Assembly: GCA_009015555.1 (NCBI GenBank)
Contig: GCA_009015555.1_3613.1
Source: a phage
Strand: one strand, 5' to 3'
DNA: 64,000 bases
Position numbers and translations under genes: made by a program. Of this stretch, positions 13,147-63,615 are shown piece after piece (the first letter of the stretch is position 1; each line of letters begins with the position of its first letter). The notes under the pieces are model-generated. The model ran no database searches. It saw only the letters and a list, made by a program, of their open reading frames with translations, and was not told the origin of the DNA.

Positions 13147-13436
13147 TATCGGTCGGCCTTTAACTTCTTGTCAACCTCCGCCACCATACGGTTCAGTTCA
13201 GCCATTTCTTCGTCCAGCTTCTTGTTGATAGGTTTCCCAAACAACCAGAATTTATCCTTCGCAAAGTCCACCTTGTCGGCTGTCCACTGGCAAAGGTCTT
13301 CCAACTTTCCCGCCAGGAAACTGCCAAAGGCAGCGAGCAGGCTGAACGGAATCAGTACCGCACGATGTGGGTTAAGCACAATGAGCGCCGTCAGCAGAAG
13401 AATGACTTTAGCAAACTTCGACAATACCTTCAACAT
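13146..13436 (-). CDS. membrane protein
   Basis: Two hydrophobic segments; start moved to an internal ATG to avoid overlap. Confidence 0.4.
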   Translation of the reverse strand: MLKVLSKFAKVILLLTALIVLNPHRAVLIPFSLLAAFGSFLAGKLEDLCQWTADKVDFAKDKFWLFGKPINKKLDEEMAELNRMVAEVDKKLKADR

Positions 13437-16917: not shown

Positions 16918-16946
16918 ATTATGGGGCCTTTCGGCCCCGCTGTCAA
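16918..16946 (-). promoter_or_regulatory. sigma70-type promoter with GC hairpin in spacer (minus strand)
   Basis: Minus strand TTGACA-gcGGGGCCgaaaGGCCC-CATAAT. Confidence 0.7.
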
Positions 16947-18956
16947 TTAAAAAATCACTTTCAGTGTGCGGGTGAATGCACCAGTCACTTTCACCGTCAG
17001 TTCGTTGCGCTGGGTATCAGAGAAGCCCAGGCCAGACAGTTGTTCGTCAGAGGCCGGAACCTTCATCTTACCTGCCAGATGCTCGAACACTTTACGGTGC
17101 TCGTTCAGTTCGTTACGCAGATACTCGTTGTAGAAACCGCGAGTAGTGCCCGGCTGTTTTGCGCCTTCCAGCATGAAGAAGTAATGCTTGTTACCAATCG
17201 CCTGACCGTCCCAGTGGTTCGGAGAGTTCATGATTACAGACACCTTCTGGAACTGCTCGGTAGCCATTCCCCACACATCTTTAGACTGCTTGCTGTGTGG
17301 CAGTGATTCAATGACCTCCACGCCACCTTTACGGGTGTAACGGAAGGTGATTACATCAACATCGCTACCGCGAGACATCGCCTGTGGACGACTAAACTCC
17401 AGCGTTGTATTGCCATGCTCCAGTTCAAGAGTGAAGCCAACACGGTCACGAGAACGAACATTGTACTGGTTCACCCACACCTTATAAATACCTTCTTCGA
17501 TCTGACTCTCGCGTTCGAAGATGATGTTCTCAACAGGGTTCAGATCATCATGCTTATCCATGCCGTTCATATCCAGGTCCAGATACGCACCGCCACCACG
17601 ACGATTACCGTAATACAGGTGCTCACCGCGAGGGGTACGCATATGCAGGTCAAGGTCATCGCCATTGTTCCACGCCAGAGAGATACGCAGGGCACCCTCC
17701 ACTTTACCACCCGCTGCTTTCACACGCTCTTTAATAGAGTCAGTAACTTCACCATTGTAAGACCAGGAGAAGTTGTTGTCCCACTTCAGCATGTTCGGAG
17801 CGTCCGGATATACCGGGGCCACCAGAGACACCAGGTTGCCAGTGTGGCGGTTCTCAACCAGCGCTTCGATGCTTGTTGCCGTCGGCAGAACTTCACGGAT
17901 GAATTTCTCGATGGAGATCTCTTCCACGTTAGCCGGGCCTTTAACAGGCTTCTTCGCCCCTTTCAGCAGGTCACCGAACACATCTGTGGCCTTCTGGGTG
18001 TTGCGGTCAGCAAACAGCACGTTGTTAACGGTCAGGTCTTCCAGTACAGCGTAGCGGCGAGGCAGAGAGTCCATCAGACCCAGTTGCTGAACCTTCTCCT
18101 GTGCTTTCTTGATCATCGCTTCGGTAACCAGCGCAGTCGGGCGCTTGTAGTTTGCCGGGGCCATAACCTTTTCCCAGCGCTTAACCGCAGATTCGATATC
18201 CATACCGCCGGACAGATCTTCCAGCAGGTTGCCGATCGCAGTATTACGGAACTTACCGCGCTCACCCAGCTTCAGGCCGTTTGTCCACACGAACGCTTCT
18301 TTACCTGCGGTATCCAGAGCATCGTATTTGTTCTTCAGGTCGAGGAACAGGTTGACGCTGGCGATCTGCTCGTTACCACGGTACAGGGAACCCTGTGCGT
18401 TCAGTTCGATGATCGTTTCTGCTGCGTCGGCAGTCAGTTCAATCAGGCTACGCTCCAGAACCTGCACGTTGCTACGAGAGCGGCTCAGGGCAGTTGCGAT
18501 ATCTGAGTTTGGCTTCACGAAGTTCTGCGGCAGAACGGCGTGGAAGTGGTTATACGTCACGACCTGATCGTTTTCCAGAACGTTGCTTTGTGCCGTACCC
18601 ACCTTAGTGGTGAAGTGCAGGAACTCGTCAGCGATCGGTGCTGCATGGATCAGCTTGGACAGCGAGTCAACCACCGCCTGGTAGTAACCCGGCACCTTGA
18701 TGTCCCAGATGGAGACACGCTTACCGTCAACGAAGGTCACCACACGACCAACATCACGGATGAATTGCTTACAGCAGTTGCAGTCGTACTCACGGCGCTC
18801 ACGGAACATCAGGTTGGTGCCCGCCGGGAATGAATCGAGATAATGGTTCCACACGACGTCTTTGTCAGCAGCCACTTCAAACAGGCCAGTTTTAGCCATC
18901 TTGGTCAGTTGTTTCTGGATAGCCAGTACGAAGTTATGATAGTTGTTAGTGCTCAT
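16947..18956 (-). CDS. large hypothetical protein (669 aa)
   Basis: Long uninterrupted ORF; N-terminal CNCC cluster; C-terminal Gly/Asp-rich region (WNNGDDLDLHMRTP ... LDLDMNG). No family recognised. Confidence 0.7.
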   Translation of the reverse strand: MSTNNYHNFVLAIQKQLTKMAKTGLFEVAADKDVVWNHYLDSFPAGTNLMFRERREYDCNCCKQFIRDVGRVVTFVDGKRVSIWDIKVPGYYQAVVDSLSKLIHAAPIADEFLHFTTKVGTAQSNVLENDQVVTYNHFHAVLPQNFVKPNSDIATALSRSRSNVQVLERSLIELTADAAETIIELNAQGSLYRGNEQIASVNLFLDLKNKYDALDTAGKEAFVWTNGLKLGERGKFRNTAIGNLLEDLSGGMDIESAVKRWEKVMAPANYKRPTALVTEAMIKKAQEKVQQLGLMDSLPRRYAVLEDLTVNNVLFADRNTQKATDVFGDLLKGAKKPVKGPANVEEISIEKFIREVLPTATSIEALVENRHTGNLVSLVAPVYPDAPNMLKWDNNFSWSYNGEVTDSIKERVKAAGGKVEGALRISLAWNNGDDLDLHMRTPRGEHLYYGNRRGGGAYLDLDMNGMDKHDDLNPVENIIFERESQIEEGIYKVWVNQYNVRSRDRVGFTLELEHGNTTLEFSRPQAMSRGSDVDVITFRYTRKGGVEVIESLPHSKQSKDVWGMATEQFQKVSVIMNSPNHWDGQAIGNKHYFFMLEGAKQPGTTRGFYNEYLRNELNEHRKVFEHLAGKMKVPASDEQLSGLGFSDTQRNELTVKVTGAFTRTLKVIF

Positions 18957-41535: not shown

Positions 41536-42731
41536 TATTTCTTCCCCTTACGTTTAAATTTATTGTGGCCCTTACCACGGCGGAGTCGCCCCTGCTCCCA
41601 GTCACGTGCTGGCTTGTCCAGCTTCGCAATGTTGGCGAAGTCTTTGAAGTTCCACGTGTCGAAAGAGTCAACACATACAGACAGGCCATGCTGATCTGCG
41701 ATAATCCGCTTCACCATCCCGCTGATTCCGCCGCCACCGACAATTGCGACCCTGCGGAGCTTGCTTTCGTACATCTCGATGGCTTTCTCCACAGAGATCT
41801 CGTCAAGCTGCGACATGTCGAGGTCTTCCTTCTTGGCACCGTACATCAAAGAGTACAAAGCAGTCTTCAATGCAGGCTTGGTGCCGAAGTAGATCTGCAC
41901 TTTATACTTTCTTGCGAGCGCTGTCAACTGAGACATTACGTCTGCCGCCGCACGGGCCACAATGTTGGCATCGGGGATTGCTTCGATGAACATAGGTGGC
42001 GCAGGCCAGCCGATCATCTCTTCAATTTCTTTGTTGCGCTCCAGAGTCTCTTGCAGGCGCTTCATCTCTTGTGCCTCTTCCACCAGGTCGGTGATCTTGA
42101 AGATCATCGGATGCTTACGGACCTTCAGCGCCGGGTCATCGCCGGAGATGTGCAGGTCCGGGCGAGGCAGGTCGGCCTTGCAGAGTTCTTCCAGACGAGA
42201 CCAATCCATCTCGCTCTCCATGCAGATAAAGGCATCACCATCTTTAGGTGGCATGTACGTCTTGTTCAGGCGTGGCATGTGGTGCATGTCCGGCAGGAAC
42301 GGATAATCGAAACGCCCGGTAGAGCTACGGCCCTTGAGGATCTCGAAGGTTACAAATTCCTCTTTCGGTGCATTGACCTCATCAAAACAAACCAAGTTGA
42401 TGTCACGAACTTCCGGCATGTTGGCAATCTTGTCCTTGAGAGCTTCACGCTGCTCGGCGGTCTCGACCCCGTGCGCCGCACAAACCTGGTCAATGTCGAT
42501 AACCAAAGTGCGATTACGGATATCCTTCGGCAGGTCAGAATAGTCGATGCCAGACACGGCGTCTTCGACAACCTTTTTCGCCTTCTCCATATCAAATCCC
42601 AAGCCCAACTCACGTTGCTTACGGATGTTTTCCATGTGGTTCTTGAAGAACGGATCTTCAACGAAGACATCATCTGCCAGCGCGGAACGAACTTCTTCGA
42701 AAGTCTGACCTTGGGATTTGTAATTGTTCAT
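41535..42731 (-). CDS. hypothetical protein (398 aa) with Gly-rich GGGGISG loop
   Basis: Start MNNYKSQ with GAGGAAA RBS and own promoter; track start lies inside the promoter. VAIVGGGGISGMV near the C-terminus. Confidence 0.6.
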   Translation of the reverse strand: MNNYKSQGQTFEEVRSALADDVFVEDPFFKNHMENIRKQRELGLGFDMEKAKKVVEDAVSGIDYSDLPKDIRNRTLVIDIDQVCAAHGVETAEQREALKDKIANMPEVRDINLVCFDEVNAPKEEFVTFEILKGRSSTGRFDYPFLPDMHHMPRLNKTYMPPKDGDAFICMESEMDWSRLEELCKADLPRPDLHISGDDPALKVRKHPMIFKITDLVEEAQEMKRLQETLERNKEIEEMIGWPAPPMFIEAIPDANIVARAAADVMSQLTALARKYKVQIYFGTKPALKTALYSLMYGAKKEDLDMSQLDEISVEKAIEMYESKLRRVAIVGGGGISGMVKRIIADQHGLSVCVDSFDTWNFKDFANIAKLDKPARDWEQGRLRRGKGHNKFKRKGKK

Positions 42732-42763
42732 CGGTGTTTCCTCATTTGTGTTGGTATGGGGCC

Positions 42764-42792
42764 ATAATACAGGCCCCATTTATTACTGTCAA
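42764..42792 (-). promoter_or_regulatory. sigma70-type promoter with -10 inside a hairpin loop (minus strand)
   Basis: Minus strand TTGACA-17-TATTAT; -10 flanked by GGGGCC / GGCCCC inverted repeat. Confidence 0.65.
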
Positions 42793-46810: not shown

Positions 46811-46838
46811 TTGACTTATCAGATGGCCCATATATAAT
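46811..46838 (+). promoter_or_regulatory. sigma70-type promoter with -10 inside a palindrome
   Basis: TTGACT-16-TATAAT; the -10 sits in the loop of GGCCCAT...ATGGGCC. Confidence 0.65.
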
Positions 46839-46870
46839 GGGCCTCATTGACAACAAAGAGGAGAAATTCA

Positions 46871-48109
46871 ATGCAGCAGACTTACAAACGTACTGACCAA
46901 ACCATGTTTAAGAAACGAATCAGTATCCGACAGATGGAAGATCTGATCCGCCTTGGTGCCCGTATCGGTAAAACCACTTTCTTCTTCGGTGGTGCAGGTC
47001 TCGGTAAGTCCCAAAAAGTGTTGCAGGTAGCCAACAACATGTTCCCCCACCGCATCGGGGACAACCTGTGTGACGTTCGCCTGTCCGACAAAGAGCCGCA
47101 GGATATTGCAGGTATCCCGGTCCCGGTAACCTATTTCGATCCGGTTCAGGGCAAAGAAGTTACCCGTACTGTGTACGCATGTCCGAGCTTCTGGCCTACA
47201 GACCCGAACTGGGAAGGTATCGTATTCCTGGATGAACTGCCGAACGCAATGCTGGGCACTCAGCACTCTGCGTATCAGGTTATTCTGGACCACGTTGCAG
47301 GTGACCACCGCTTCCCGAAAGGTTGTGTGTTCGTTGGTGCAGGTAACCGTGACACCGATAACGCAGGCACCACCGAAATGCCTGGGCCGCTGGTTAACCG
47401 TATGATCATGGCAGAGGTTGAATACAATCTGGATGTGTGGATTGAGGACTTCGCAGTCCCATTCAAACTGCACCCACACGTAATCGGCTTCCTGAAGCAG
47501 TTCCCGGAGCATTTCTACACTGGTGACGTAGAGAAGCGCTCTACTCCGGTGTTCGCATCACCTCGTCAGTGGAAAACTGTTTCTGACATTCTGTACGATT
47601 ACGAAGTACAGAAGAATGAGTACATCACCGAGATCGCTATCGCGGGTTCTGTTGGTGAAGGTCTGGAAACTGCGGTTCTTGCGTACCACTTACGTGCCGC
47701 TGAACTGCCGAAAGTTGAAGACATCTTCTCCGGTAAGGTGAAAAAGCACGAACTGTCTCGTGAGAAGAACGACCTGGTTTACGTACTGGCACAGACCTGC
47801 TTACGTCAACTGGAGAAAGAAGTGATGGACAATGGCATGAATGATGAGATCTTCATCGAACGTGCTTCTAACTTCCTAAACTTCATGTTCAACAACTATT
47901 ACAAGGCGAACAAAGACACCATGATCGCGCTGATGATTGGTATCTTCCGTGCATCCAATACGGATCAACAGGCGATCCTGAGCCTGAACCCGAAACGTAC
48001 CAAGATGATCCCGGCGCTGCGTAAGAACTGCGAAGCTGTTATGACTATCGTAATGGAGTATCAGACTCGTTATGGTAAAATCATGGAGGATTTCAACGTT
48101 AAAGGTTGA
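46871..48109 (+). CDS. MoxR-type AAA+ ATPase
   Basis: GAGGAG RBS. Walker A GGAGLGKSQ; Walker B VFLDELPNA. Confidence 0.8.
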   Translation: MQQTYKRTDQTMFKKRISIRQMEDLIRLGARIGKTTFFFGGAGLGKSQKVLQVANNMFPHRIGDNLCDVRLSDKEPQDIAGIPVPVTYFDPVQGKEVTRTVYACPSFWPTDPNWEGIVFLDELPNAMLGTQHSAYQVILDHVAGDHRFPKGCVFVGAGNRDTDNAGTTEMPGPLVNRMIMAEVEYNLDVWIEDFAVPFKLHPHVIGFLKQFPEHFYTGDVEKRSTPVFASPRQWKTVSDILYDYEVQKNEYITEIAIAGSVGEGLETAVLAYHLRAAELPKVEDIFSGKVKKHELSREKNDLVYVLAQTCLRQLEKEVMDNGMNDEIFIERASNFLNFMFNNYYKANKDTMIALMIGIFRASNTDQQAILSLNPKRTKMIPALRKNCEAVMTIVMEYQTRYGKIMEDFNVKG

Positions 48110-48133
48110 CATCACAATATAAGCTGATAGAAT
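48106..48133 (+). promoter_or_regulatory. candidate promoter ahead of the VWA gene
   Basis: TTGACA-16-TAGAAT overlapping the MoxR stop codon. Confidence 0.4.
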
Positions 48134-48167
48134 GGGGTCATCTTTCGAGATGGCCCCTTTTTCTTTT
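48134..48167 (+). terminator. terminator-like hairpin / leader stem-loop
   Basis: GGGGTCATC-TTTCGA-GATGGCCCC followed by TTTTTCTTTT, between the MoxR stop and the VWA RBS. Confidence 0.6.
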
Positions 48168-55264: not shown

Positions 55265-55440
55265 TATTTGTGGGCCAAGGACGGCTCAGTTTTCAGATCG
55301 GATTTCGATTTGATATTTGCCTGTGATATTTGCGCCGATATTTGAAATCAGATTTCAATTCGAAATTCAATTTGAGATTTTATTTGAGATGGCCCGCCGG
55401 GCCGGGACTCAGATCAGATTCCTTTTTCAGATTTACTCAA
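55263..55440. repeat. cluster of short A/T-rich direct repeats (GATATTTG / GATTTCGA / ATTTGAGAT)
   Basis: gtGATATTTGtg ... GATTTCGATTTGATATTTGcctgtGATATTTGcgccGATATTTGaaatcaGATTTCAATTCGAAATTCAATTTGAGATTTTATTTGAGAT. Confidence 0.7.
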
Positions 55441-55564
55441 CAATGTACCAGCACACCCGGCCCCGGTCAAGGGCTAATGTACCATAAATGTTACATTAAG
55501 GGGCTTATGCACCACTAACGGCACATATACGTTACAATACGGGAGTTATCTCTGGTCAAAAAAT

Positions 55565-55735
55565 TTGAGGGTCTCGATCGGTTTTTCGTTTTGCCGATCG
55601 TATTCTCTGCCCGCCGGGCCGGACTGGGGTCTCGGTACAGAAAGCAGGGTCTCGATCGAAAACTCAATTTCGAGATCGTATTCTCGATACAGGTACAGGT
55701 CTCCGCCCGGGGTCTCGATCGAGATTTCATTTTCA
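55565..55735. repeat. three ~45-bp direct repeats GGGTCTCGATCG-N-CGTATTCTC
   Basis: GGGTCTCGATCG at 55569, 55647 and 55710, each followed 14-18 nt later by CGTATTCTC; GCCCGCCGGGCCGG blocks in between. Confidence 0.75.
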
Positions 55736-55769
55736 AAAACGTATTCTCAAAATCTATACAGAGGTGAAA

Positions 55770-55895
55770 ATCGAAATGAGAATTTTTATCATTCACGTTA
55801 GGCCCGAGGCGAAATGAGAATCGTTCTCATTTGCAAATTGAAATGATAATTATTCGCATTTACGTAGTTGAATGAGAATCATTCTCATCTCCAGA
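55770..55895. repeat. four palindromic repeats GAAATGAGAAT-n-ATTCTCATTT
   Basis: Four copies, two of them perfect palindromes (AAATGAGAA-TCG-TTCTCATTT; ATGAGAAT-C-ATTCTCAT). Confidence 0.75.
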
Positions 55896-56164
55896 ATAGC
55901 GGGCACCCCCGGTGATTGTCTCCGGGTCATTTCTCCCCGCTATGTGTATAATATAGCCCAACCCCGGCCCGGTTGCAAGCGTCTTTACAGTTCTTTACAA
56001 AACTATTTTGGACGAACTACCGGCGATCCACCTTCCGACCTGGCCCCGGTGCCCGGTACGTTAGCCCCGCCTTTTCGCCGTGGGGTGGCGTCTCCTCTCC
56101 TGTATGTGTACATTATGGACTAGCCCCGCCGGGCCGTCAATACCAAAACGAAAATAAATTTTTC

Positions 56165-56193
56165 TTGACCTGCCAGGCAAGCCGGGCCACAAT
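56165..56193 (+). promoter_or_regulatory. sigma70-type promoter
   Basis: TTGACC-17-CACAAT ahead of ORF 56223. Confidence 0.55.
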
Positions 56194-56222
56194 GCAGGCA
56201 CACCAACAAAGGAGATCGACCG

Positions 56223-56563: not shown

Positions 56564-56592
56564 TTGACGGGGCCAGCGATAGGCCCCATAAT
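56564..56592 (+). promoter_or_regulatory. sigma70 promoter with GGGGCC...GGCCCC spacer hairpin
   Basis: TTGACG-gGGGCCagcgataGGCCC-CATAAT. Confidence 0.75.
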
Positions 56593-56647
56593 TCACCACA
56601 TAGCGACGCACACCGCGCCGCGCTAACAGAAGAGAGAGACCGTTATC

Positions 56648-57088
56648 ATGTTACATTCAATCAATAAAGAACAACGCCTTTACGTTATGCCTTGCGGGAA
56701 TGGCTTTACCTGCTACGGGTTCGACGTGTTAGACAAACGCGCCCGCGCCTTGTCTGCCTGGTACTTTGAACAGAATCCGCAAGCTATCGCACAGATCCCC
56801 GCCCGGATTGGCACTAAAAAACATTTTAAAGCCTGCCAGGCAGTGATCCAGCAGGTGGGCCGCTATTGCACCCATAAGGGCATTAAATGCCCGGTTGAAT
56901 TGTCGCCACAATTAAAAGGCCTGGAGGGTCGCCGGGTTGAGGTTGTCACCATGTACGGCGAAAAGCGCCGCTTTATTGTGGGCCGTTCTACTGGCTGGCT
57001 GGTCACTCATCTGGAGATCCCCCGCGCCAACAGTAGCGGCGGTATGAGCGCCGAAAAACAATACAAATCTGTAACCGTCATAAAATAA
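56648..57088 (+). CDS. small early-type protein (146 aa)
   Basis: Own promoter and a conserved leader shared with ORFs 60528 and 63616. Confidence 0.6.
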   Translation: MLHSINKEQRLYVMPCGNGFTCYGFDVLDKRARALSAWYFEQNPQAIAQIPARIGTKKHFKACQAVIQQVGRYCTHKGIKCPVELSPQLKGLEGRRVEVVTMYGEKRRFIVGRSTGWLVTHLEIPRANSSGGMSAEKQYKSVTVIK

Positions 57089-57101
57089 TTTAAAAATAGT
57101 A

Positions 57102-57130
57102 TTGACACCGGGGCCACCTGGCCCCATACT
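57102..57130 (+). promoter_or_regulatory. sigma70 promoter with spacer hairpin
   Basis: TTGACA-ccGGGGCCacctGGCCC-CATACT. Confidence 0.7.
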
Positions 57131-57180
57131 ACAAACAAGCCCGGCAAATGGTGCCCGGCAAAATCAGAGAGTAAAAGAAA

Positions 57181-57402
57181 ATGGCTAAAGTAACCTATAA
57201 AAAATCACGTGGCATTTCCTCTGTTAACCTGGCGGCGGTTGTAACCCTGCCCGCATACCGTACCCGCGACGAGGCCCGCGCCGTTGCCAGTAAGATCCGC
57301 GCCGCTGGCGTGACCCCGACAACGCCAACCAAAACGGCGGACGGCTGGCGCGTTACCGCAAAGCATAACGGCGGCACACTTTCCCGCAACACTCACCGCT
57401 AA
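57181..57402 (+). CDS. small early-type protein (73 aa)
   Basis: Purine-rich RBS; own promoter. Confidence 0.55.
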   Translation: MAKVTYKKSRGISSVNLAAVVTLPAYRTRDEARAVASKIRAAGVTPTTPTKTADGWRVTAKHNGGTLSRNTHR

Positions 57403-57409
57403 CCAATTG

Positions 57410-57434
57410 CAGGCCCCCGCCGGGGGCCTTTCGT
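57410..57434 (+). terminator. GC hairpin with weak T-tract (possible terminator or processing site)
   Basis: GGCCCCC-GCCG-GGGGCC followed by TTTCGTGT. Confidence 0.4.
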
Positions 57435-57448
57435 GTGGAGTCAGTACC

Positions 57449-57793
57449 ATGACCAAACAGATCCCCGCTGTCCAGATCACGCCGCTTTTCCGTTGCCATA
57501 TCTTTTATGACTGTAATGATCTTGCGGGGCAATGGATCGGCGATACCGATCAACAATATGATTTCCCGGAATGGGACGAACTAAACCGCCGTGTAAGCAA
57601 CGCCGCACACAATGCCGATCCTGATAGCCTGGCGGACGTGGAACACTTCCCCGGCGGGGCCGCTTGCTTTCCTTATATTGAGATCACCGCGCCAACGTGG
57701 GCGCTATGTAAAGCGATGAGCGACGCCGTGATCCGTTGCATCCTGGACAATGGCGGGATCGTCGAACCAAAAGACAACGGAATAAATATTTAA
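57449..57793 (+). CDS. small early-type protein (114 aa)
   Basis: GGAG RBS; no promoter of its own. Confidence 0.5.
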   Translation: MTKQIPAVQITPLFRCHIFYDCNDLAGQWIGDTDQQYDFPEWDELNRRVSNAAHNADPDSLADVEHFPGGAACFPYIEITAPTWALCKAMSDAVIRCILDNGGIVEPKDNGINI

Positions 57794-57812
57794 ATTATTT
57801 TGCTTTTGGGGG

Positions 57813-57841
57813 TTGACGCCCGGCGGCGCTTCCCCCATAAT
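57813..57841 (+). promoter_or_regulatory. sigma70 promoter with GC-rich spacer
   Basis: TTGACG-17-CATAAT, flanked by GGGGG / CCCCC. Confidence 0.7.
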
Positions 57842-57894
57842 ACACCACATAGGGCGACGGAATAACCCGCCGCCAAAAACCAAAAGGTAACAGT

Positions 57895-58134
57895 ATGCAA
57901 ACCGTAATGATTAGCCACCCGGATCACGCTTCAGATTTCTACGCACCGATCTACGCCCCGCTTGAATGGCAACGCCAGGGCCTGCAAAAAACCGCCACGG
58001 GCTATGGCACCAAGATCCCCACGTCCTATATGTTGGACTATCAAGGCAAGCGCCGCCGGATCTATGTTGACCAGTACAGCAACGCCGGGCACACTTACAT
58101 AATGATCAAAGGCGAAAAAATTACAGTTTGCTAA
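57895..58134 (+). CDS. small early-type protein (79 aa)
   Basis: AAAAGG RBS; own promoter. Confidence 0.55.
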   Translation: MQTVMISHPDHASDFYAPIYAPLEWQRQGLQKTATGYGTKIPTSYMLDYQGKRRRIYVDQYSNAGHTYIMIKGEKITVC

Positions 58135-58143
58135 AAATAATTG

Positions 58144-58172
58144 TTGACCGGGGGCCGGGTAGGCCCCATAAT
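58144..58172 (+). promoter_or_regulatory. sigma70 promoter with spacer hairpin
   Basis: TTGACC-gGGGGCCgggtaGGCCC-CATAAT. Confidence 0.75.
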
Positions 58173-58212
58173 ACCAGACATACCAAACAGACAAGAAAAC
58201 GAGGCTTACAAA

Positions 58213-58443
58213 ATGAATCTGACTACTATCGGCGCTAACCAAACCATGATCACCCTGGCCGACGGCTCACAGGTTTTCTTTTCCTACAATACCCCGGTTG
58301 CGGCATACCTGCCCGGCGTGGGCTATGTAGTGACCGCCAAAAAGCACAGCGCCACCACGTCAAAACATGTTAATGCTTGGGCTGGCAAAGGTTGCGACAC
58401 CCGCCCACAGGAATTTTTTGATAATCTCATTAAATCCGCTTGA
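58213..58443 (+). CDS. small early-type protein (76 aa)
   Basis: GAGG RBS; track start 58141 lies inside the promoter. Confidence 0.55.
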   Translation: MNLTTIGANQTMITLADGSQVFFSYNTPVAAYLPGVGYVVTAKKHSATTSKHVNAWAGKGCDTRPQEFFDNLIKSA

Positions 58444-58469
58444 CGTTTGAATTATGCCGGGGTTATAAT
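58440..58469 (+). promoter_or_regulatory. sigma70 promoter with -10 in a hairpin loop
   Basis: TTGACG-18-TATAAT; GCCGGGG-ttataat-TCCCGGC. Confidence 0.7.
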
Positions 58470-58519
58470 TCCCGGCATAGACAAGCGAAAGCAAACAACC
58501 AAACCGAAAGGATCACACA

Positions 58520-58900
58520 ATGAACATTATCAACACTGTAAACGCCGCCGACATCAAAGAAATTTCCGTAACTGGTAAACGTTGGTTCCAGCGTAGCTAC
58601 GGCAACACTTATCACAGCGTAAGCCTGGGGGCGCTGGTATCCGTTGAAGTGGCGGACCGCTTAGGCGCTAACAAGTACGGCAACAAAAGCGGCGACGTGT
58701 GGATCGACCTGGCTTATGTTGGTTTCGCCTATGGTTATGATCGCGGGTTCGAACAAACCGCATTAAGCGCGATGATCGAGGCGGTGAAGGATGCCCCGGC
58801 GGCGTGGCGTGGTATGTCCTACGCTTGCCAGGCGGCGGCGGATCTCGGGGTTGTCTACACTGATAACGTTTATGATGTTAGCCGCAAAAAAGATTTATAA
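58520..58900 (+). CDS. small early-type protein (126 aa)
   Basis: AAAGGA RBS; GYDRGFEQTAL segment loosely resembles GYNREDAAFQEAI in ORF 59264. Confidence 0.6.
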   Translation: MNIINTVNAADIKEISVTGKRWFQRSYGNTYHSVSLGALVSVEVADRLGANKYGNKSGDVWIDLAYVGFAYGYDRGFEQTALSAMIEAVKDAPAAWRGMSYACQAAADLGVVYTDNVYDVSRKKDL

Positions 58901-58906
58901 TTTTGG

Positions 58907-58936
58907 TTGACACGGGGCCGGGTTAGGCCCCATAAT
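58907..58936 (+). promoter_or_regulatory. sigma70 promoter with spacer hairpin
   Basis: TTGACA-cGGGGCCgggttaGGCCC-CATAAT. Confidence 0.75.
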
Positions 58937-58968
58937 ACCCCCACACCAACAGAAAAGAGATTGACACC

Positions 58969-59178
58969 ATGATCAACGAACAGCAAGTAAACGACGTTAA
59001 ACATGAGGCTTACCAGGTGGCGATCCGTAGTGGTTCCCGCGCCGCCTTCAATCTGGTTATTGAGTTGTACCCTGAACAGGCGGAAAATATTTTAATGCAG
59101 GTTTCCGTATTACTGGAAGCAACAAAGCACACCAAATTAAGCGCCGGGATCGATAAGCTGGCAAAAAGTTTAAAATAG
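58969..59178 (+). CDS. small early-type protein (69 aa)
   Basis: AAGAGA RBS; own promoter. Confidence 0.55.
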   Translation: MINEQQVNDVKHEAYQVAIRSGSRAAFNLVIELYPEQAENILMQVSVLLEATKHTKLSAGIDKLAKSLK

Positions 59179-59181
59179 TTG

Positions 59182-59211
59182 TTGACTCTTACCCCGTCCC
59201 GCTGGCATAAT
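59182..59211 (+). promoter_or_regulatory. sigma70 promoter with -10 in a hairpin loop
   Basis: TTGACT-18-CATAAT; GTCCCGCT-ggcataat-AGCGGGAC. Confidence 0.7.
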
Positions 59212-59263
59212 AGCGGGACTGATTAAGAGAAACACCACAAACCAAACGAAGAGAGAAAACATT

Positions 59264-59650
59264 ATGAACGCTACTTACGATTTTTCCAACATGGTTGTAA
59301 CTTCTGGCGACCTGGGCAAGGCCCGTAACCAAAACAATTTTTACAAGGCCGTTCACCTGGTCGGGCTGGTAGACAATGAGATCAAAGATCTGGCGGAGGT
59401 CCGCTTCTACGGCACCGGGAAAACTAACACGGCGATCCTTTGGATTCACTCCCCGATCCTGGGTCTGTATGGTTCGGAGTTTGGCAAGGCTGGCGGCTAT
59501 GGCTATAATCGCGAAGATGCAGCATTTCAGGAGGCGATCCGCAAGATGGGGGTTAAGGGTGACGGATACCATACGCCCCGCGATTTTTTCGAGGCCCTTG
59601 CTAAATATCTTGGGGTTGCTGTATACTCTGTTATTGAATCCCATGCTTAA
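59264..59650 (+). CDS. small early-type protein (128 aa)
   Basis: AAGAGAGAAA RBS; own promoter. Confidence 0.6.
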   Translation: MNATYDFSNMVVTSGDLGKARNQNNFYKAVHLVGLVDNEIKDLAEVRFYGTGKTNTAILWIHSPILGLYGSEFGKAGGYGYNREDAAFQEAIRKMGVKGDGYHTPRDFFEALAKYLGVAVYSVIESHA

Positions 59651-59659
59651 TGGTGTATA

Positions 59660-59971
59660 ATGACAATCGTAACTCTGATTTGTTTAGCACTGGCGGCGCT
59701 TTATTGCGTCGCCACTCACAAAGCCGCACTATGGCGAAAGGGTCAAAAAATGTACGGTTATTTTGAATACGAGTACAAAGGGGAGAAGGGATCAAGCCGG
59801 GACTATGGCGCAATGTGTGAGATCGATATGGTTGGCGCTATGAACTACCGCCAGGAGTTGGGCGCGGTGATCACTTATGAGGTTTACGACTCCTCAGAAG
59901 AGAAGATCGGAGAAATAATCGATCAACGTTACTACATGGAACAACAGCAAAACAAACGCCGGAGAAGATGA
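59660..59971 (+). CDS. hypothetical protein with N-terminal hydrophobic segment (start uncertain)
   Basis: Track ORF; alternative start at MYGYFEYEY; no clear promoter. Confidence 0.4.
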   Translation: MTIVTLICLALAALYCVATHKAALWRKGQKMYGYFEYEYKGEKGSSRDYGAMCEIDMVGAMNYRQELGAVITYEVYDSSEEKIGEIIDQRYYMEQQQNKRRRR

Positions 59972-59973
59972 GA

Positions 59974-60108
59974 ATGATTCACACTAACATTAACCGCGAT
60001 AAACAACCGCGCCGCGCCCGTCTCTCATACGCTGAAGCAGGCGAGCGCCTGCAACGTGAGAAGGCCAACAAACAACAGCGCCGTAAAACGCGCTATAACT
60101 GGGAGTAA
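59974..60108 (+). CDS. tiny Arg/Lys-rich protein (44 aa)
   Basis: Hand-translated MIHTNINRDKQPRRARLSYAEAGERLQREKANKQQRRKTRYNWE; GGAGAAGATGAGA before the ATG. Confidence 0.35.
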   Translation: MIHTNINRDKQPRRARLSYAEAGERLQREKANKQQRRKTRYNWE

Positions 60109-60143
60109 GCGCCCCGGCATGGAAACACCAGGCCAAACAGTTT

Positions 60144-60170
60144 AAACCGCACAGGGGGCCGCTTAGGCCC
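60144..60170 (+). terminator. rho-independent terminator
   Basis: GGGGGCC-GCTTA-GGCCCC followed by TTATTTTTT. Confidence 0.75.
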
Positions 60171-60184
60171 CTTATTTTTTATCT

Positions 60185-60424
60185 ATGGGGTACACAATGC
60201 AAAACCTTTTAACCTTAACAGATTTTATCCGGGCTATGGGGTCCCGTCCGATGGGGTTTAGCGCCCTTTACCTGGTAACCGATGGCAAAGGATACCGCGC
60301 CACCTGCAAAGCGCTTGCCGCCGTTGCGGCCCGCGAAGGGGTCAAGATCTCCACGGGTCAAGCCTTGGTAGTTGACCCGGCGACATTGGCAACGGCGGAG
60401 GCGATCCGGGTCACTGTAAAATAA
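60185..60424 (+). CDS. small early-type protein (75-79 aa)
   Basis: ATG at 60185 or 60197; no promoter of its own. Confidence 0.5.
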   Translation: MGYTMQNLLTLTDFIRAMGSRPMGFSALYLVTDGKGYRATCKALAAVAAREGVKISTGQALVVDPATLATAEAIRVTVK

Positions 60425-60448
60425 TTTAAAATATTTTCATCCTGGGGC

Positions 60449-60477
60449 TTGACGTCCGGCCCCGGTTCCCCCATAAT
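60449..60477 (+). promoter_or_regulatory. sigma70 promoter with GC-rich spacer
   Basis: TTGACG-tccGGCCCCggttcccc-CATAAT. Confidence 0.75.
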
Positions 60478-60527
60478 CTAACCCATAGCGACGCACACCG
60501 CGCCGCACTAACAGAAGAGAGACCGTT

Positions 60528-60962
60528 ATGACTTCCCCAATTTTCCGTATCAAATCAGGTTTATCCGTTTACGCACTGGCTTGCGGCTATATCCAAGAGA
60601 TCGACACAAAGATCACCGGGAAAAATATCCGGGTACAGCTTTTAATGGAACACGGCGCTTTTCACGTCAAGGCACATGATTTTGATGACGTGGGCCGGAT
60701 CGAGTGGGTTGTTGAAGATCAGATCGGCGACGCCCGCACACAATGGAAAGCGCTTGTTAATCAGCTTTTCGGGGAAGTTATCCGCACAATCAAAAAAGAT
60801 AAGCGCTACACCGTAACCCGTGAATTTTCCGGCGACCCTTGCGGGGCCTTGTATGTTACCCGTTTTTGTGGGGAATTTGTAAGCCGTGCCGACACAATCC
60901 CCGGCGCATGGGTAAAAGCCGCCGAACACAACGCCGAAAGAATGAAAAATTATCAAAAATAA
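60528..60962 (+). CDS. small early-type protein (144 aa)
   Basis: Shares the conserved leader with ORFs 56648 and 63616. Confidence 0.6.
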   Translation: MTSPIFRIKSGLSVYALACGYIQEIDTKITGKNIRVQLLMEHGAFHVKAHDFDDVGRIEWVVEDQIGDARTQWKALVNQLFGEVIRTIKKDKRYTVTREFSGDPCGALYVTRFCGEFVSRADTIPGAWVKAAEHNAERMKNYQK

Positions 60963-60964
60963 TT

Positions 60965-60993
60965 GTTGACCGGGGCCGGGTTAGGCCCCATAA
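60965..60993 (+). promoter_or_regulatory. sigma70 promoter with spacer hairpin
   Basis: TTGACC-GGGGCCgggttaGGCCC-CATAAT. Confidence 0.75.
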
Positions 60994-61025
60994 TACCCCC
61001 AGACAAACAAACCGGAGTTAGACCA

Positions 61026-61178
61026 ATGAAACAATATCTTGTAAACATCCCTGGCGTGGCTGGCCCGTTGAAAGTTTATGGCTATGATGAGCAGGACGCA
61101 AGAAAGCGCCTACGTGATCGGGAAGGTTTCGGATCACGCCTCCCACGTGGCACAAAATTTTATTTGCAAAACGCTTGA
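61026..61178 (+). CDS. tiny basic protein (50 aa)
   Basis: GGAG RBS; track start 60963 lies inside the promoter. Confidence 0.45.
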   Translation: MKQYLVNIPGVAGPLKVYGYDEQDARKRLRDREGFGSRLPRGTKFYLQNA

Positions 61179-61203
61179 CGTGTGGTTATGCCGTCGCCTA
61201 TAA
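61174..61203 (+). promoter_or_regulatory. sigma70 promoter with -10 in a hairpin loop
   Basis: TTGACG-18-TATAAT; ATGCCGTC-gcctataat-GACGGCAT. Confidence 0.7.
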
Positions 61204-61257
61204 TGACGGCATAGACAAACGAAAGCAACACCAGACAACCAAACGAGGGTTAAAATT

Positions 61258-61515
61258 ATGTTTGAAGTATTCGCCGGAATGTGTTTTTATGCCGCCGCCG
61301 CTTTAAAACAGTGTGATGATTACACCGTTGAAGCATACGACGATCAGTTAACTTGCGAGATCGTCGCCAACGGCTACCGCCAGGACCCGCGCTGGATTAA
61401 TCCGGCTTGTATCCCTGGGCCGGAAGTTGAAGCAATGCCGGAAGGTGAGCCGCTATTAGAACCGATCCCGGCGGCTAATCACTTGAACGTAAACCCGGCG
61501 CAAAAAGAGTATTAA
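61258..61515 (+). CDS. small early-type acidic protein (85 aa)
   Basis: GAGGG RBS; own promoter. Confidence 0.55.
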   Translation: MFEVFAGMCFYAAAALKQCDDYTVEAYDDQLTCEIVANGYRQDPRWINPACIPGPEVEAMPEGEPLLEPIPAANHLNVNPAQKEY

Positions 61516-61521
61516 AAGCGC

Positions 61522-61551
61522 TTGACGCCGGGACGGTTCCCGGCTTATAAT
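61522..61551 (+). promoter_or_regulatory. sigma70 promoter, CCGGGA...TCCCGG spacer palindrome
   Basis: TTGACG-CCGGGAcggtTCCCGGC-TTATAAT. Confidence 0.8.
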
Positions 61552-61588
61552 CTCAGACATACCAAACAGGCAAATGAGGCCGCAAATC

Positions 61589-61795
61589 ATGACACGTTAT
61601 TTTGTTACTCGCAATGTTTACCGCTTAGAAAATGGCAACGTTTACCGCTGGAGTGGGGCGCGTGGTGGCTGGTTGCACCGTGACGGCTTTACCCCTTCAG
61701 ATCTCACCGATGGGACCGTGATCGGCGCGGTTGAGGTATCAGAAGAGGAAGCAAACCGCCGGATCTCTGAATTGTTAAAAGGCGGTGCAAAATGA
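61589..61795 (+). CDS. small early-type protein (68 aa)
   Basis: GAGG RBS; own promoter. Confidence 0.5.
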   Translation: MTRYFVTRNVYRLENGNVYRWSGARGGWLHRDGFTPSDLTDGTVIGAVEVSEEEANRRISELLKGGAK

Positions 61796-61971
61796 AATCA
61801 TCTTTACTTTTCGCCCTGGTTGACATCGTGATCGGCAATGGTTGCGGGCAACATACATTTATTGCTAACCGCCCCTATCCGCTAAAGTCATTGCAGGCTG
61901 ACGCCCGATTAACAGCGGCACAGATCCGCCGCTACTTTCGGGAACCACACCCGGCAAAGAATGCAAAATAA
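61792..61971 (+). CDS. small protein (59 aa), translationally coupled
   Basis: Hand-translated MKSSLLFALVDIVIGNGCGQHTF..; ATGA overlap. Confidence 0.4.
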   Translation: MKSSLLFALVDIVIGNGCGQHTFIANRPYPLKSLQADARLTAAQIRRYFREPHPAKNAK

Positions 61972-61974
61972 TTG

Positions 61975-62004
61975 TTGACGCCGGGCACCGTCCCGGCTTA
62001 CAAT
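61975..62004 (+). promoter_or_regulatory. sigma70 promoter, GCCGGG...CCCGGC spacer palindrome
   Basis: TTGACG-CCGGGCaccgTCCCGGC-TTACAAT. Confidence 0.75.
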
Positions 62005-62034
62005 GACCCCACACAAACAAACGAGGCTTTAAAC

Positions 62035-62340
62035 ATGCAACAGGCTAACACTCTTTTCATTCTGGCAAACGTAGCGGATCACGTCGTGGCGTCGCTGTCC
62101 AACGTAGCGGGCACCGTCCAGATCATTTGTCGTCATATGGATGACAAAGCGCCGAACCGCTTACAAATCAACGTAGACCGCGACGGGAAAGAATTTGTGA
62201 TCTCTTATGACGCTATCTATAATGGCAACCGGATCACGCAAGCCAAAAGCCAACCGATCCCCGCCGATTTTATCCAGCAAGTGATCGCCGAAATCGTAAA
62301 CGACACGATCCCAGCGGGGGCGCTGTATGAATCCGCATAA
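62035..62340 (+). CDS. small early-type protein (101 aa)
   Basis: GAGG RBS; track start 61972 lies inside the promoter. Confidence 0.55.
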   Translation: MQQANTLFILANVADHVVASLSNVAGTVQIICRHMDDKAPNRLQINVDRDGKEFVISYDAIYNGNRITQAKSQPIPADFIQQVIAEIVNDTIPAGALYESA

Positions 62341-62482
62341 ACTCTTAATCACCAGTTACCCCAGCAAGGCGGATCGCCGTGAAACTTTGGACCGCTTAAC
62401 GCGCTACTATCAGGAGGCCGGGCACAATAAGACAACCGCCCGCGCCCTGGCTAAAAAGCGTTTGCGATTTGGTAAAAATTAG
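62327..62482 (+). CDS. tiny basic protein (51 aa)
   Basis: Hand-translated MNPHKLLITSYPSKADRRETLDRLTRYYQEAGHNKTTARALAKKRLRFGKN; overlaps the upstream gene by 14 nt. Confidence 0.4.
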   Translation: MNPHKLLITSYPSKADRRETLDRLTRYYQEAGHNKTTARALAKKRLRFGKN

Positions 62483-62483
62483 C

Positions 62484-62513
62484 TTGACGCCGGGAACCGT
62501 CCCGGCTTATAAT
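62484..62513 (+). promoter_or_regulatory. sigma70 promoter, GCCGGG...CCCGGC spacer palindrome
   Basis: TTGACG-CCGGGAaccgTCCCGGC-TTATAAT. Confidence 0.8.
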
Positions 62514-62564
62514 CTCTCACATAGCGCGGGGGATGGTCCCCGCATTATCTAAGAGGTTATGAAT

Positions 62565-62717
62565 ATGTTTACTTTGATGACTTGGGAACACGAAACAAGC
62601 TCCCCGATCCGCCGCACTTTTGAAGACCTATGCGCCGCTTATCGCCTGGCGCAAGGCGGTTATTATAAGGCCCAAATCATTGATGAAAACAATGTGATCA
62701 TGTACGAATTTAAATGA
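62565..62717 (+). CDS. tiny protein (50 aa)
   Basis: Hand-translated MFTLMTWEHETSSPIRRTFEDLCAAYRLAQGGYYKAQIIDENNVIMYEFK; AAGAGG RBS 8 nt upstream. Confidence 0.45.
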   Translation: MFTLMTWEHETSSPIRRTFEDLCAAYRLAQGGYYKAQIIDENNVIMYEFK

Positions 62718-62746
62718 TTGACATCCGGCCCGAAAGGGCCGATAAT
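62718..62746 (+). promoter_or_regulatory. sigma70 promoter with spacer hairpin
   Basis: TTGACA-tccGGCCCgaaaGGGCC-GATAAT. Confidence 0.7.
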
Positions 62747-62777
62747 GACCCACACCAACAAAAGAGAGACCGTAAAA

Positions 62778-62984
62778 ATGATTACAATGATTCTGCAAAA
62801 GTCCCGCCTGATTGATGTTACTGTTACCCTGTCCGCTTGCGGTGAATCATCCCGCCGGGCCGATCATTACCAGGTTACCGCTGTAAGCGACAACGGCGCG
62901 ATCCTTCTCTCTGAAGCGACCCCCGCGCTACATGAGGCATTTTTGACCTATTCGAAGTGGAAAGGGCCGGAAGAAATAAAATAA
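62778..62984 (+). CDS. small early-type protein (68 aa)
   Basis: Track start 62718 lies inside the promoter; start taken at MITMILQ. Confidence 0.5.
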   Translation: MITMILQKSRLIDVTVTLSACGESSRRADHYQVTAVSDNGAILLSEATPALHEAFLTYSKWKGPEEIK

Positions 62985-62991
62985 AAAGTAG

Positions 62992-63020
62992 TTGACGGCG
63001 GGGCCGATAGGCCCCATAAT
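62992..63020 (+). promoter_or_regulatory. sigma70 promoter with spacer hairpin
   Basis: TTGACG-gcGGGGCCgataGGCCC-CATAAT. Confidence 0.75.
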
Positions 63021-63052
63021 ACCCCCACACCAAACGAAATAGGATTCACAAA

Positions 63053-63307
63053 ATGTTAAAATTCATCAAATCACTTTTCACCCGCACCGCCCCGGCTTGC
63101 AAGTTGCCACCGCTGGAGGCGCAAGGCGTGATCGCTCGCAAAGTCTCAGAACTGTTTATCATTTCATTGGTTCACAATGGCGGCGACTGTTACGAAATCA
63201 TCGAAATGGGCCGCTACACCAACACCGGATCAAGCCGTGTCCGCTACGGTGAACACCGCGCCCGGAATCATTTTGATTCTGTATGCTGTATGGTTGGTGC
63301 AAAATGA
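63053..63307 (+). CDS. small early-type protein (84 aa)
   Basis: AGGA RBS; own promoter. Confidence 0.55.
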   Translation: MLKFIKSLFTRTAPACKLPPLEAQGVIARKVSELFIISLVHNGGDCYEIIEMGRYTNTGSSRVRYGEHRARNHFDSVCCMVGAK

Positions 63308-63516
63308 TCGCGTTTACCTTTGAGCGCCTGCCGGACACCTCCCCCCGCTGGGGGGAGTGTGAAGAGGTTGTGATCCTTGCCCGCGATGAGGCGCAAGCCT
63401 GGCAGATGTTAGGGGAATATGTAGCGGCGCACACGTTGCCAGCCTGGAAGCTGGCAGAACAAAAGCCAGCCGCGCCCGGCGTGATCTTTTTCACGTCCTA
63501 CACGTTAGGCGTTTAA
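63304..63516 (+). CDS. small protein (70 aa), translationally coupled
   Basis: ATGA overlap with the upstream stop. Confidence 0.5.
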   Translation: MIAFTFERLPDTSPRWGECEEVVILARDEAQAWQMLGEYVAAHTLPAWKLAEQKPAAPGVIFFTSYTLGV

Positions 63517-63533
63517 TCTTTACAAAACTATTG

Positions 63534-63563
63534 TTGACGCCGGGCACCGTCCCGGCCTATAAT
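63534..63563 (+). promoter_or_regulatory. sigma70 promoter, GCCGGG...CCCGGC spacer palindrome
   Basis: TTGACG-CCGGGCaccgTCCCGGC-CTATAAT, followed by the conserved leader. Confidence 0.8.
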
Positions 63564-63615
63564 TCACCACATAGCGACGCACACCGCGCCGCGCTAACAG
63601 AAGAGAGATCGTAAA

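Follow-up and report, generated by a model that had tools for sequence, protein, structure and literature searches.

We analyzed a 64,000-nucleotide (nt) stretch of phage DNA (NCBI GenBank assembly GCA_009015555.1, contig GCA_009015555.1_3613.1), hereafter called the window, in which five promoters, named here S1 to S5, carry the -10 hexamer in the loop of an inverted repeat. These sites are a positional subclass of cassettes of the promoter-early stem-loop (PeSL) type, in which the hairpin probably acts in RNA read through from the upstream gene and the cassettes are probably, in second place, patches for recombination; judged by sequence, this double service is the likeliest of the readings that we weighed. 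The initial annotation had regarded the sites as a second promoter class, in which a hairpin might expose the -10 hexamer as a single strand, as in the promoters of phage N4.

Between positions 44000 and 50000 the window was 95% identical to the Cronobacter phages PBES02 and CR3, myoviruses of about 150 kb, and on this similarity we assign it to a CR3-like Certrevirus of the subfamily Vequintavirinae (rV5-like). The plus strand from about 44.7 kb to the end of the window holds a long series of hypothetical genes, most of them small. Beyond 56 kb nearly all of them have a promoter of their own, and 16 cassettes lie between genes of 50-150 amino acids (aa) in the part from 56 to 64 kb. Relatives cover 42-100% of this small-gene early region, in pieces.

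Hairpins embedded in early promoters

All five sites had perfect inverted repeats around the -10 hexamer, as first claimed (Table 1). The coordinates given initially were correct to the base for S1 (46825-46843) and differed by a few bases at the remaining sites (58455-58475, 59191-59219, 61183-61207 and 42757-42776), and the stems, put at 6-8 base pairs (bp), measured 7-9 bp and were GC-rich. The accompanying -35 was indeed found at every site, in the form TTGACN. The two hexamers together matched the consensus at 10-11 of 12 positions and were 16-18 nt apart. The -10 of S1 overlaps both the loop and the 3' arm, while that of S2 lies wholly within a 9-nt loop, under a stem of 10 bp if the inner G.U pair is counted. 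Counted from the predicted start of transcription, the last base of the 3' arm lies at -1 to +4.

The promoters are preceded by A/T-rich UP regions. The stop codon of the upstream gene lies within the -35 of S1-S5 or at most 6 nt from it, and at S2 (58441-58443), S4 (61176-61178) and S5 (42791-42789) the TGA stop is the TGA of TTGAC itself, so that coding sequence and promoter overlap. Since the stop is placed in this way at these three sites, there is no room for a separate element between gene and promoter. The leaders are 24-49 nt long and A/C-rich (A 44%, C 31%, G 17%, T 8%), end in a Shine-Dalgarno sequence and ATG, and were unstructured at all five sites.

Table 1. Promoter-embedded hairpins and associated features of the window (positions in window coordinates)
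Feature	Position	Strand	Description
S1 promoter	46811-46838	+	-35 TTGACT 46811-46816; 16-nt spacer; -10 TATAAT 46833-46838
S1 hairpin	46825-46843	+	arms GGCCCAT 46825-46831 and ATGGGCC 46837-46843; 5-nt loop ATATA; RNA -12.5 kcal/mol
Start codon, S1-served gene (MoxR-like ATPase)	46871-46873	+	GAGGAG Shine-Dalgarno ahead
S2 promoter	58440-58469	+	-35 TTGACG 58440-58445; 18-nt spacer; -10 TATAAT 58464-58469
S2 hairpin	58453-58479	+	arms TATGCCGGG 58453-58461 and CCCGGCATA 58471-58479; RNA -17.2 kcal/mol
Start codon, S2-served 126-aa gene	58520-58522	+	after a 44-nt A/C-rich unstructured leader
S3 promoter	59182-59211	+	-35 TTGACT 59182-59187; 18-nt spacer; -10 CATAAT 59206-59211
S3 hairpin	59196-59219	+	arms GTCCCGCT 59196-59203 and AGCGGGAC 59212-59219; -10 in 8-nt loop; RNA -17.1 kcal/mol
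Start codon, S3-served 128-aa gene	59264-59266	+	
S4 promoter	61175-61204	+	-35 TTGACG 61175-61180; 18-nt spacer; -10 TATAAT 61199-61204
S4 hairpin	61187-61213	+	arms TATGCCGTC 61187-61195 and GACGGCATA 61205-61213; -10 in 9-nt loop; RNA -14.6 kcal/mol
Start codon, S4-served 85-aa gene	61258-61260	+	
S5 promoter	42764-42792	-	-35 TTGACA 42792-42787; 17-nt spacer; TG-extended -10 TATTAT 42769-42764; upstream gene 87 aa
S5 hairpin	42756-42779	-	arms ATGGGGCC 42779-42772 and GGCCCCAT 42763-42756; -10 in 8-nt loop; RNA -16.9 kcal/mol
Start codon, S5-served 398-aa gene (function unknown, phrog_21279)	42729-42731	-	
Class-A array (hairpin inside spacer)	56564-63563	+	-35 starts 56564, 57102, 58144, 58907, 60966, 61522, 61975, 62484, 62718, 62992, 63534
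Isolated class-A cassette	16918-16946	-	TTGACA gcGGGGCCgaaaGGCCC CATAAT
Class-C cassette (-35 in loop), promoter 60449	60444-60477	+	GGGGC-ttgacgtccg-GCCCC
Nested-hairpin cassette, promoter 57813	57807-57841	+	GGGGGG...CCCCCC encloses the -35; -20.4 kcal/mol
Promoter-like TTGACA-16-TAGAAT directly followed by a canonical terminator	48106-48165	+	hairpin 48134-48157 and TTTTTCTT

The repeats exceeded what chance would give. Sites whose hexamers matched the consensus at 10 or more of 12 positions were taken as promoter-like, and the window held 37 of them. At each we sought the best perfect inverted repeat in the interval that runs from the end of the -35 to 10 nt beyond the -10, with 20,000 random 34-nt windows as background. 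A repeat of at least 6 bp was present at 14 of the 37 sites, against 4.8% of the background (binomial p = 7e-10), and one of at least 7 bp at five sites, against 1.25% (p = 1e-4); these five are exactly S1-S5. Folded as RNA, their hairpins reached -12.5 to -17.2 kcal/mol (z = -2.8 to -4.6), and as DNA -8 to -10 kcal/mol per strand. No Rfam family matched anywhere in the window.

When all strong promoters of the window were lined up, the -10-in-loop form (class B) turned out to be a minority. At 11 promoters in 56-64 kb and at one at 16946 on the minus strand the hairpin lies wholly inside the spacer (class A), with stems of the type GGGGCC-n4-7-GGCCCC or CCGGG(A)-n4-6-(T)CCCGG. The C of CATAAT is often the last base of these stems, and the -10 of class A thus departs from consensus because its C supplies that base. 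At least one promoter (60449, class C) and arguably a second (57813, with the nested hairpin) have the hairpin around the -35. The stem at 60444-60477 extends to 7 bp (CCGGGGC/GCCCCGG) in CR8, F1M1E and CR9, and in CR3, PBES02 and CB7 one orthologue places the -35 inside the 5' arm of a 14-bp hairpin. Because the hairpin is seen in the spacer, around the -10 and around the -35, it is not part of a fixed recognition geometry: the -10-in-loop form is one position of a movable hairpin and not a separate mode of promoter recognition. The proposed second class therefore stands as a distinct positional class beside the commoner spacer-repeat class, but not as a separate promoter mechanism.

Several neighbouring elements were also recorded. 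The promoter-like site at 48106 lies between the ATPase gene and the next gene, and its start would fall inside the 5' arm of the terminator; its own transcript would escape this terminator, and transcripts from upstream would be stopped. On the minus strand at 13120-13180 a promoter-like TTGACA-18-GATAAT is part of a long imperfect hairpin with TTTT behind it; a gene ends here, and its stop TAA is inside GATAAT. We did not count it as a cassette, as it is most likely a plain terminator with a chance likeness to a promoter. Directly upstream of the class-A cassette at 16946 lies an open reading frame (ORF) of 669 aa (16947-18956, minus strand), which had no Pfam match and matched only PHROGs of unknown function (phrog_1735). 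The promoter at 62484 has, besides its spacer hairpin, a hairpin CATAGCGCGGGGgatggtCCCCGC in the leader (-15.5 kcal/mol, window 62520-62545).

Covariation of the stem arms and its strand

Early regions were compared from ten Certreviruses and from four phages less closely related, the latter found through BLAST hits confined to the cassettes. Pairs were counted inward from homologous outer anchors, with slid registers and column shuffles as controls. MAFFT alignments across class-B families were dropped as the arms fell out of register, and column-wise counts among orthologues were confounded by one-base slips in G/C runs, so each orthologue was refolded instead. A pattern scan of IMG/VR for cassettes like S2 and S4 with free arms returned phiTE only, and GenBank phage records were then used.

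Sixteen distinct homologous cassettes (TTGACG..TTATG..-10..CATAG..ACAAACGAAAG) were obtained. In these, 97.2% of 144 stem cells paired, 91.7% in Watson-Crick fashion, while slid registers gave 33-49% and column shuffles 79.4% (standard deviation 2.2; 0 of 5000 reached the observed value). Changes on both sides occurred in six of the nine pairs, and the inner arms came in 12 different combinations. We conclude from these patterns of change that the class-B stems are under selection for pairing.

The individual sites behaved as follows. The S1 hairpin was identical in five relatives and decayed to CCAAT-tata-ATTGG in CB7. The inner pair of S2 was G.T, G-C or T-A depending on the phage, and S3 had one C.A in CR8. 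At S4 a G-C became G.T in CB7 and phiTE. For S5, CB7 has C-G in place of T-A, and F1M1E shows the intermediate state C.A. The S2 and S4 cassettes are paralogues, and the changes that distinguish their arms are paired. Taking all 18 early promoters, a hairpin of -12 to -20 kcal/mol was kept in nearly every orthologue, even where another cassette type fronts the same gene. Relatives hold further class-B families with unrelated arms, namely TATAGGTC/GACCTATA, AGGACCC/GGGTCCT, GGTGCCGCC/GGTGGCATC and TATGTGGGG/CCCCACATA.

The mismatches bear on the strand in which pairing is selected. A transition in one arm yields G.T or A.C equally, and only a structure of a single strand tolerates G.T and purges A.C. 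Among the non-Watson-Crick cells in the inner pairs of the 16 cassettes there were 8 G.T against 1 A.C, with one cell of another kind (p = 0.02); when all 27 distinct arm pairs of class B were taken, G.T outnumbered A.C by 21 to 8. Class-B cores folded better as RNA of the sense than of the antisense strand in 16 of 20 cases. Folding of whole regions had given class A a strong antisense advantage, which we rejected as an artefact of the A/C-rich leaders (G/U-rich in antisense), as it was gone on the hairpin cores. The asymmetry leans to a role of the sense strand, be it in read-through RNA or, conceivably, in single-stranded non-template DNA. Because G.T outnumber A.C, it argues against both a symmetric cruciform and a duplex operator.

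Kinship with PeSLs and the proposed role

PeSLs were described in the T4-type phages RB49 and phi1 as units with a Shine-Dalgarno sequence and ATG at the 3' end (Arbiol et al. 2010, PMC2839356), and are known from RB49/phi1, T4/PST and KVP40/nt-1 (PMC2839356; Comeau et al. 2014, PMC4122927). The stem-loop may stand in the spacer, over the -10, over the -35, upstream of the -35, or between the -10 and the start. In phi1, one stem-loop lowered lacZ read-through to about the same extent as rrnB T1, and complete PeSLs on plasmids acted as very strong promoters. ORFans are shuffled when PeSLs recombine with each other, mini-circles arise in this way, and one crossover was mapped to the loop (all PMC2839356).

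As a positive control, we ran the identical scan on the hyperplastic region of phi1 (ORF185-233). It recovered a spacer form (TTGACA gGGGATCggtgATCCCCt TATAAT) and -10-in-loop forms (GGGGGTat TAATAT ACCCCC, GGGAGTag TAAGAT ACTCCC, GGGGATatag CATAAT ATCCCC and GGGTGTatat CATAAT ACACCC). The geometry of the latter was as here: the 5' arm lay in the spacer's 3' half, and the 3' arm began directly after the -10 and spanned the discriminator; CATC or CATA, an A/C-rich leader, GGAG and ATG followed.

The cassettes of the window share with PeSLs the upstream stop codon in an A/T-rich region, the sigma70-type -35 and -10 followed by Shine-Dalgarno and ATG, and a GC-rich stem-loop at variable positions, including 'overlapping the -10 box'. 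Both are clustered among small ORFan early genes in a hyperplastic region and are tied to insertions, deletions and replacements between close relatives. They differ in host lineage, as PeSLs were published for T4-like phages only and the present cassettes belong to Vequintavirinae (Certrevirus and relatives), plus one cassette in Stephanstirmvirinae. Stem sequences are of the GGGGCC, CCGGG and TATGCCG types here, whereas those of phi1 follow G(n)-loop-C(n), and the genome here has a GC content of 51%, compared with 40% for the phi1 region. Reduced lacZ read-through and mini-circles were reported in phi1; the present cassettes were studied at the level of sequence. Judged by layout, the S1-S5 cassettes are architecturally equivalent to phi1 PeSLs.

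The same promoters have been published as the sigma70-like early promoter of Certrevirus, AAAA(N3-4)TGTTGAC(N17-19)TATAAT (Buttimer et al. 2020, PMC7344957). That description is for this very genus and for its early region, with the short hypothetical genes, and includes the UP element, but writes the spacer as N17-19 and is silent on any stem or inverted repeat. A promoter stem is not mentioned in the genome papers on rV5 and phiTE either, and we found no published description of PeSL-type cassettes in this phage lineage.

We describe and interpret the arrangement as follows. In about 60-80 nt, between two small co-directional early genes, a cassette holds the upstream stop (often the TGA in TTGAC), an A/T-rich UP element, both hexamers with their GC-rich hairpin, a start motif CAT(A), an unstructured A/C-rich leader, the Shine-Dalgarno sequence and ATG. 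Host RNA polymerase would read the near-consensus sigma70 hexamers, and the arms would occupy positions that sigma70 does not read, namely about -23 to -15 in the 3' half of the spacer and the discriminator as far as about +2 to +4. With its -10 in the loop, the promoter would work as ordinary duplex DNA. Since the 3' arm ends so close to the predicted start, the promoter's own transcript would begin in the last bases of this arm and lack the hairpin, which would exist only in RNA read through from the upstream gene. There it would most likely attenuate or pause read-through, or mark or protect the 3' end, or both, and the expression of each small early gene would be insulated. The conserved cassettes of about 100 nt would secondarily be homology patches for swaps of genes or promoter modules between phages.

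The stems resemble intrinsic terminators in that a GC-rich stem of 7-10 bp stands just 3' of a stop codon (-12 to -17 kcal/mol), and class-B stems differ from them in having no U-tract. The canonical terminator at 48134-48165 has 7 U, against 0-3 in the 8 nt after the S1-S5 stems, and our terminator scan, which asked for at least 5 U in the tract, did not reach this number on the promoter strand after any of the five. The relatives likewise carry many canonical terminators. Because the stems are without U-tracts while canonical terminators are used elsewhere in the same genomes, efficient intrinsic termination is unlikely, and for the same reason we speak of a role in RNA that could be attenuation or pausing, the protection or processing of 3' ends, or several of these together. 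The features labelled 'terminator' in the phiTE record did not prove to be promoter hairpins; all are ordinary hairpin-plus-T-run terminators and separate elements.

Several observations weigh against a role in read-through RNA combined with service as recombination modules. The promoter-embedded stems are followed by only 0-4 U in the next 8 nt. The two unit-initial promoters (56140 on the minus and 56165 on the plus strand, n = 2) folded no better than shuffles, as this reading predicts, but several class-A sites had weak z values that overlap theirs. After shared ancestry was collapsed across all class-B stems, the G.T bias fell to about 14 to 7 (p = 0.09), with few independent events, and class-A cores had no strand bias (22 vs 19). 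The phi1 PeSLs that were assayed experimentally (206/205 and 211/210) were of the spacer type by our scan, not -10-in-loop. Finally, homology breakpoints at promoters, described below, may merely reflect selection for viable junctions in intergenic DNA.

Cassette shuffling and alternative explanations

We compared the window from 55.5 to 63.9 kb with ten relatives and found 28 clustered homology breakpoints. Half of the clusters (14 of 28) lay in promoter elements, which make up 13% of the region (p = 4e-6), and cassette types were exchanged in front of orthologous genes. Citrobacter phage Tr1, of the Stephanstirmvirinae, matched the S4 cassette (window 61149-61228) at its positions 3001-3080 with 97.5% identity over 80 nt. 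The surrounding Tr1 genes had no match at the DNA level, and the other Tr1 promoters are without an embedded hairpin; by this comparison, one promoter cassette on its own seems to have been transferred laterally.

Three near-identical leaders of about 40 nt (catagcgacgcacaccgcgccgcgctaacagaagagaga) were also seen at approximately 56599-56640, 60484-60525 and 63570-63612, after 56592, 60477 and 63563. Each has its own 5'-proximal hairpin (-8.4 to -8.8 kcal/mol). Because these leaders are joined to three different promoter-hairpin types, they point to recombination between promoter and leader modules.

Such shuffling could itself be the selected function. The hairpin would then be a DNA-level hotspot or signal for recombination, by template switching or as the target of a structure-specific nuclease, and any effect in RNA would be incidental. 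The enrichment of breakpoints, the swapped cassette types and re-joined leaders, and the S4 cassette in another subfamily all agree with this, as do the loop crossover and the mini-circles of Arbiol et al. (2010, PMC2839356) and the endonuclease VII encoded by CR3. However, homologous recombination needs a conserved cassette of about 100 nt and not intramolecular pairing, which leaves the paired changes unexplained. The constant exclusion of the hairpin from the promoter's own transcript and the strand asymmetry are equally unaccounted for, and selection for evolvability acts weakly on individual sites. We therefore hold this explanation to be unlikely, although it fares better than those that follow.

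The repeats are very unlikely to be operators, at which a dimeric DNA-binding protein of phage or host would shut off or tune early transcription. A palindrome over the -10 is a classic repressor layout, class-A stems are of just two or three sequence types (GGGGCC/GGCCCC and CCGGG/CCCGG), and small DNA-binding or transcriptional-regulator proteins are annotated in relatives. A protein that reads bases would, however, conserve sequence and not complementarity, and the five class-B sites have five different arms, with 12 co-varying inner-arm combinations in the homologous family. The spacing of the half-sites varies as well (loops of 5-11 nt in class B and 4-7 nt in class A), and the excess of G.T over A.C would not be expected from duplex recognition.

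The mechanism put forward in the initial annotation seems to us just as improbable as an operator. It holds that the repeat extrudes in supercoiled DNA and leaves the -10 single-stranded for structure-dependent initiation, by an N4-like polymerase or by region 2 of sigma70. In the early promoters of N4, a stem of 5-7 bp closes a loop of 3 nt, the bases at -11, -10, -8 and +1 are fixed, and the functional hairpin is that of the template strand; these promoters need supercoiling and EcoSSB, are read by a virion RNA polymerase (vRNAP) of 3500 aa and have no -35/-10 (PMC4496689). The present sites resemble them in having, within a phage early region, a short inverted repeat whose centre lies some 10 nt ahead of the start. 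Here, however, loops are of 5-9 nt, arms are free to vary, a full -35, -10 and UP element are present and the wobble bias is on the non-template (sense) strand. The analogy failed on every feature that could be compared: the sequence hallmarks of N4, its loop and fixed bases, are absent, as is its polymerase, and the hairpin is variable in position. A phage RNA polymerase, suggested as a check, was not found: no polymerase family matched the large ORFs of the window, none is annotated in the CR3 record at 1-25000 and 65376-149273, and CB7 is stated to be without one in the Certrevirus genus paper (Buttimer et al. 2020, PMC7344957).

The energy balance makes extrusion marginal at best. In its favour, both strands carry perfect repeats with an easily melted A/T-rich centre. 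Relative to the duplex, two hairpins cost +9.7 kcal/mol at S1 and +16 to +19 kcal/mol at S2-S5 before the junction term. Supercoiling relieves about -7 to -10 kcal/mol at a superhelical density (sigma) of -0.03 and -14 to -20 kcal/mol at -0.06; at the latter value the relief roughly equals the cost (+10 to +19 before the junction term), whereas at the effective in-vivo sigma of about -0.03 extrusion is unfavourable by 3-9 kcal/mol before the junction cost. It would also take 8-9 bp, or half, of the spacer and so break the conserved 16-18 bp distance between -35 and -10. The same hairpins in the spacer or around the -35 expose no -10, and phi1 cassettes of the same architecture are very strong ordinary promoters. 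An artificial E. coli promoter that Horwitz and Loeb are said to have selected in 1988 contains an inverted repeat whose extrusion at high superhelicity reportedly represses transcription. It is similar in having the repeat within a sigma70 promoter, and differs in its artificial origin and in that covariation and strand asymmetry data are not part of that case.

The G.T bias would also suit a hairpin on the non-template DNA strand only. In this variant, to which we give even less weight, supercoil-driven breathing of the A/T-rich -10, or the onset of promoter melting by RNA polymerase, would let the -10-in-loop hairpin form transiently on that strand and offer a single-stranded -10 to region 2 of sigma70. 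The early promoters would then be structure-assisted and supercoil-sensing, a host-polymerase counterpart of the N4 principle, and the sense-strand bias would reflect single-stranded DNA and not RNA.

Equally improbable is that the palindromes have no function and are by-products of cassette duplication and of templated 'quasi-palindrome correction' that matched the arms without selection: many cassettes are clearly paralogous and templated mutation can give apparent compensatory changes in one event, but in at least 14 phages almost all orthologues keep the hairpin, the same architecture is found independently in T4-like phages with different stem sequences, the class-A -10 leaves consensus (CATAAT) to supply the last stem base, the stems are GC-rich while the flanking UP regions and leaders are not, and placement relative to the start site is regular.

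Other repeats were noted in the early regions. Many early promoters of Tr1, ABPH49 and Kashira have no promoter hairpin and show a GC hairpin a few bases after the predicted start (GCGGGAAtggTTCCCGC type), for example at 170-240 of L013 (Tr1) and 4092-4150 of L015; it is likely a stabiliser of the 5' end. In the window, a tandem repeat at 55811-55888 (2.7 copies of a 29-30-nt unit that contains the palindrome ATGAGAATCATTCTCAT) lies within a gene-free gap of about 960 nt (55265-56222), which ends on the right at two divergent promoters, 56140 on the minus and 56165 on the plus strand. A similar gap is present at this place in phiTE. The repeat could be an origin, a set of iterons or an array of regulator-binding sites.

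In summary, the cassettes described here extend promoter-plus-stem-loop units from T4-like phages to rV5-like Vequintavirinae and to one Stephanstirmvirinae cassette. They add covariation evidence for stem pairing, which we did not find in the PeSL papers (PMC2839356, PMC4122927), and the -10-in-loop form stands out as a subclass whose missing U-tract calls the label 'terminator' into question. For annotation, the N17-19 'spacer' of the published Certrevirus early promoter is not neutral sequence, and the cassettes mark likely recombination junctions in the hyperplastic early region. Their wider spread suggests that placing a hairpin in those positions of a sigma70 promoter that are neutral in sequence is a solution of general use to large lytic phages whose tiny early genes stand in arrays.

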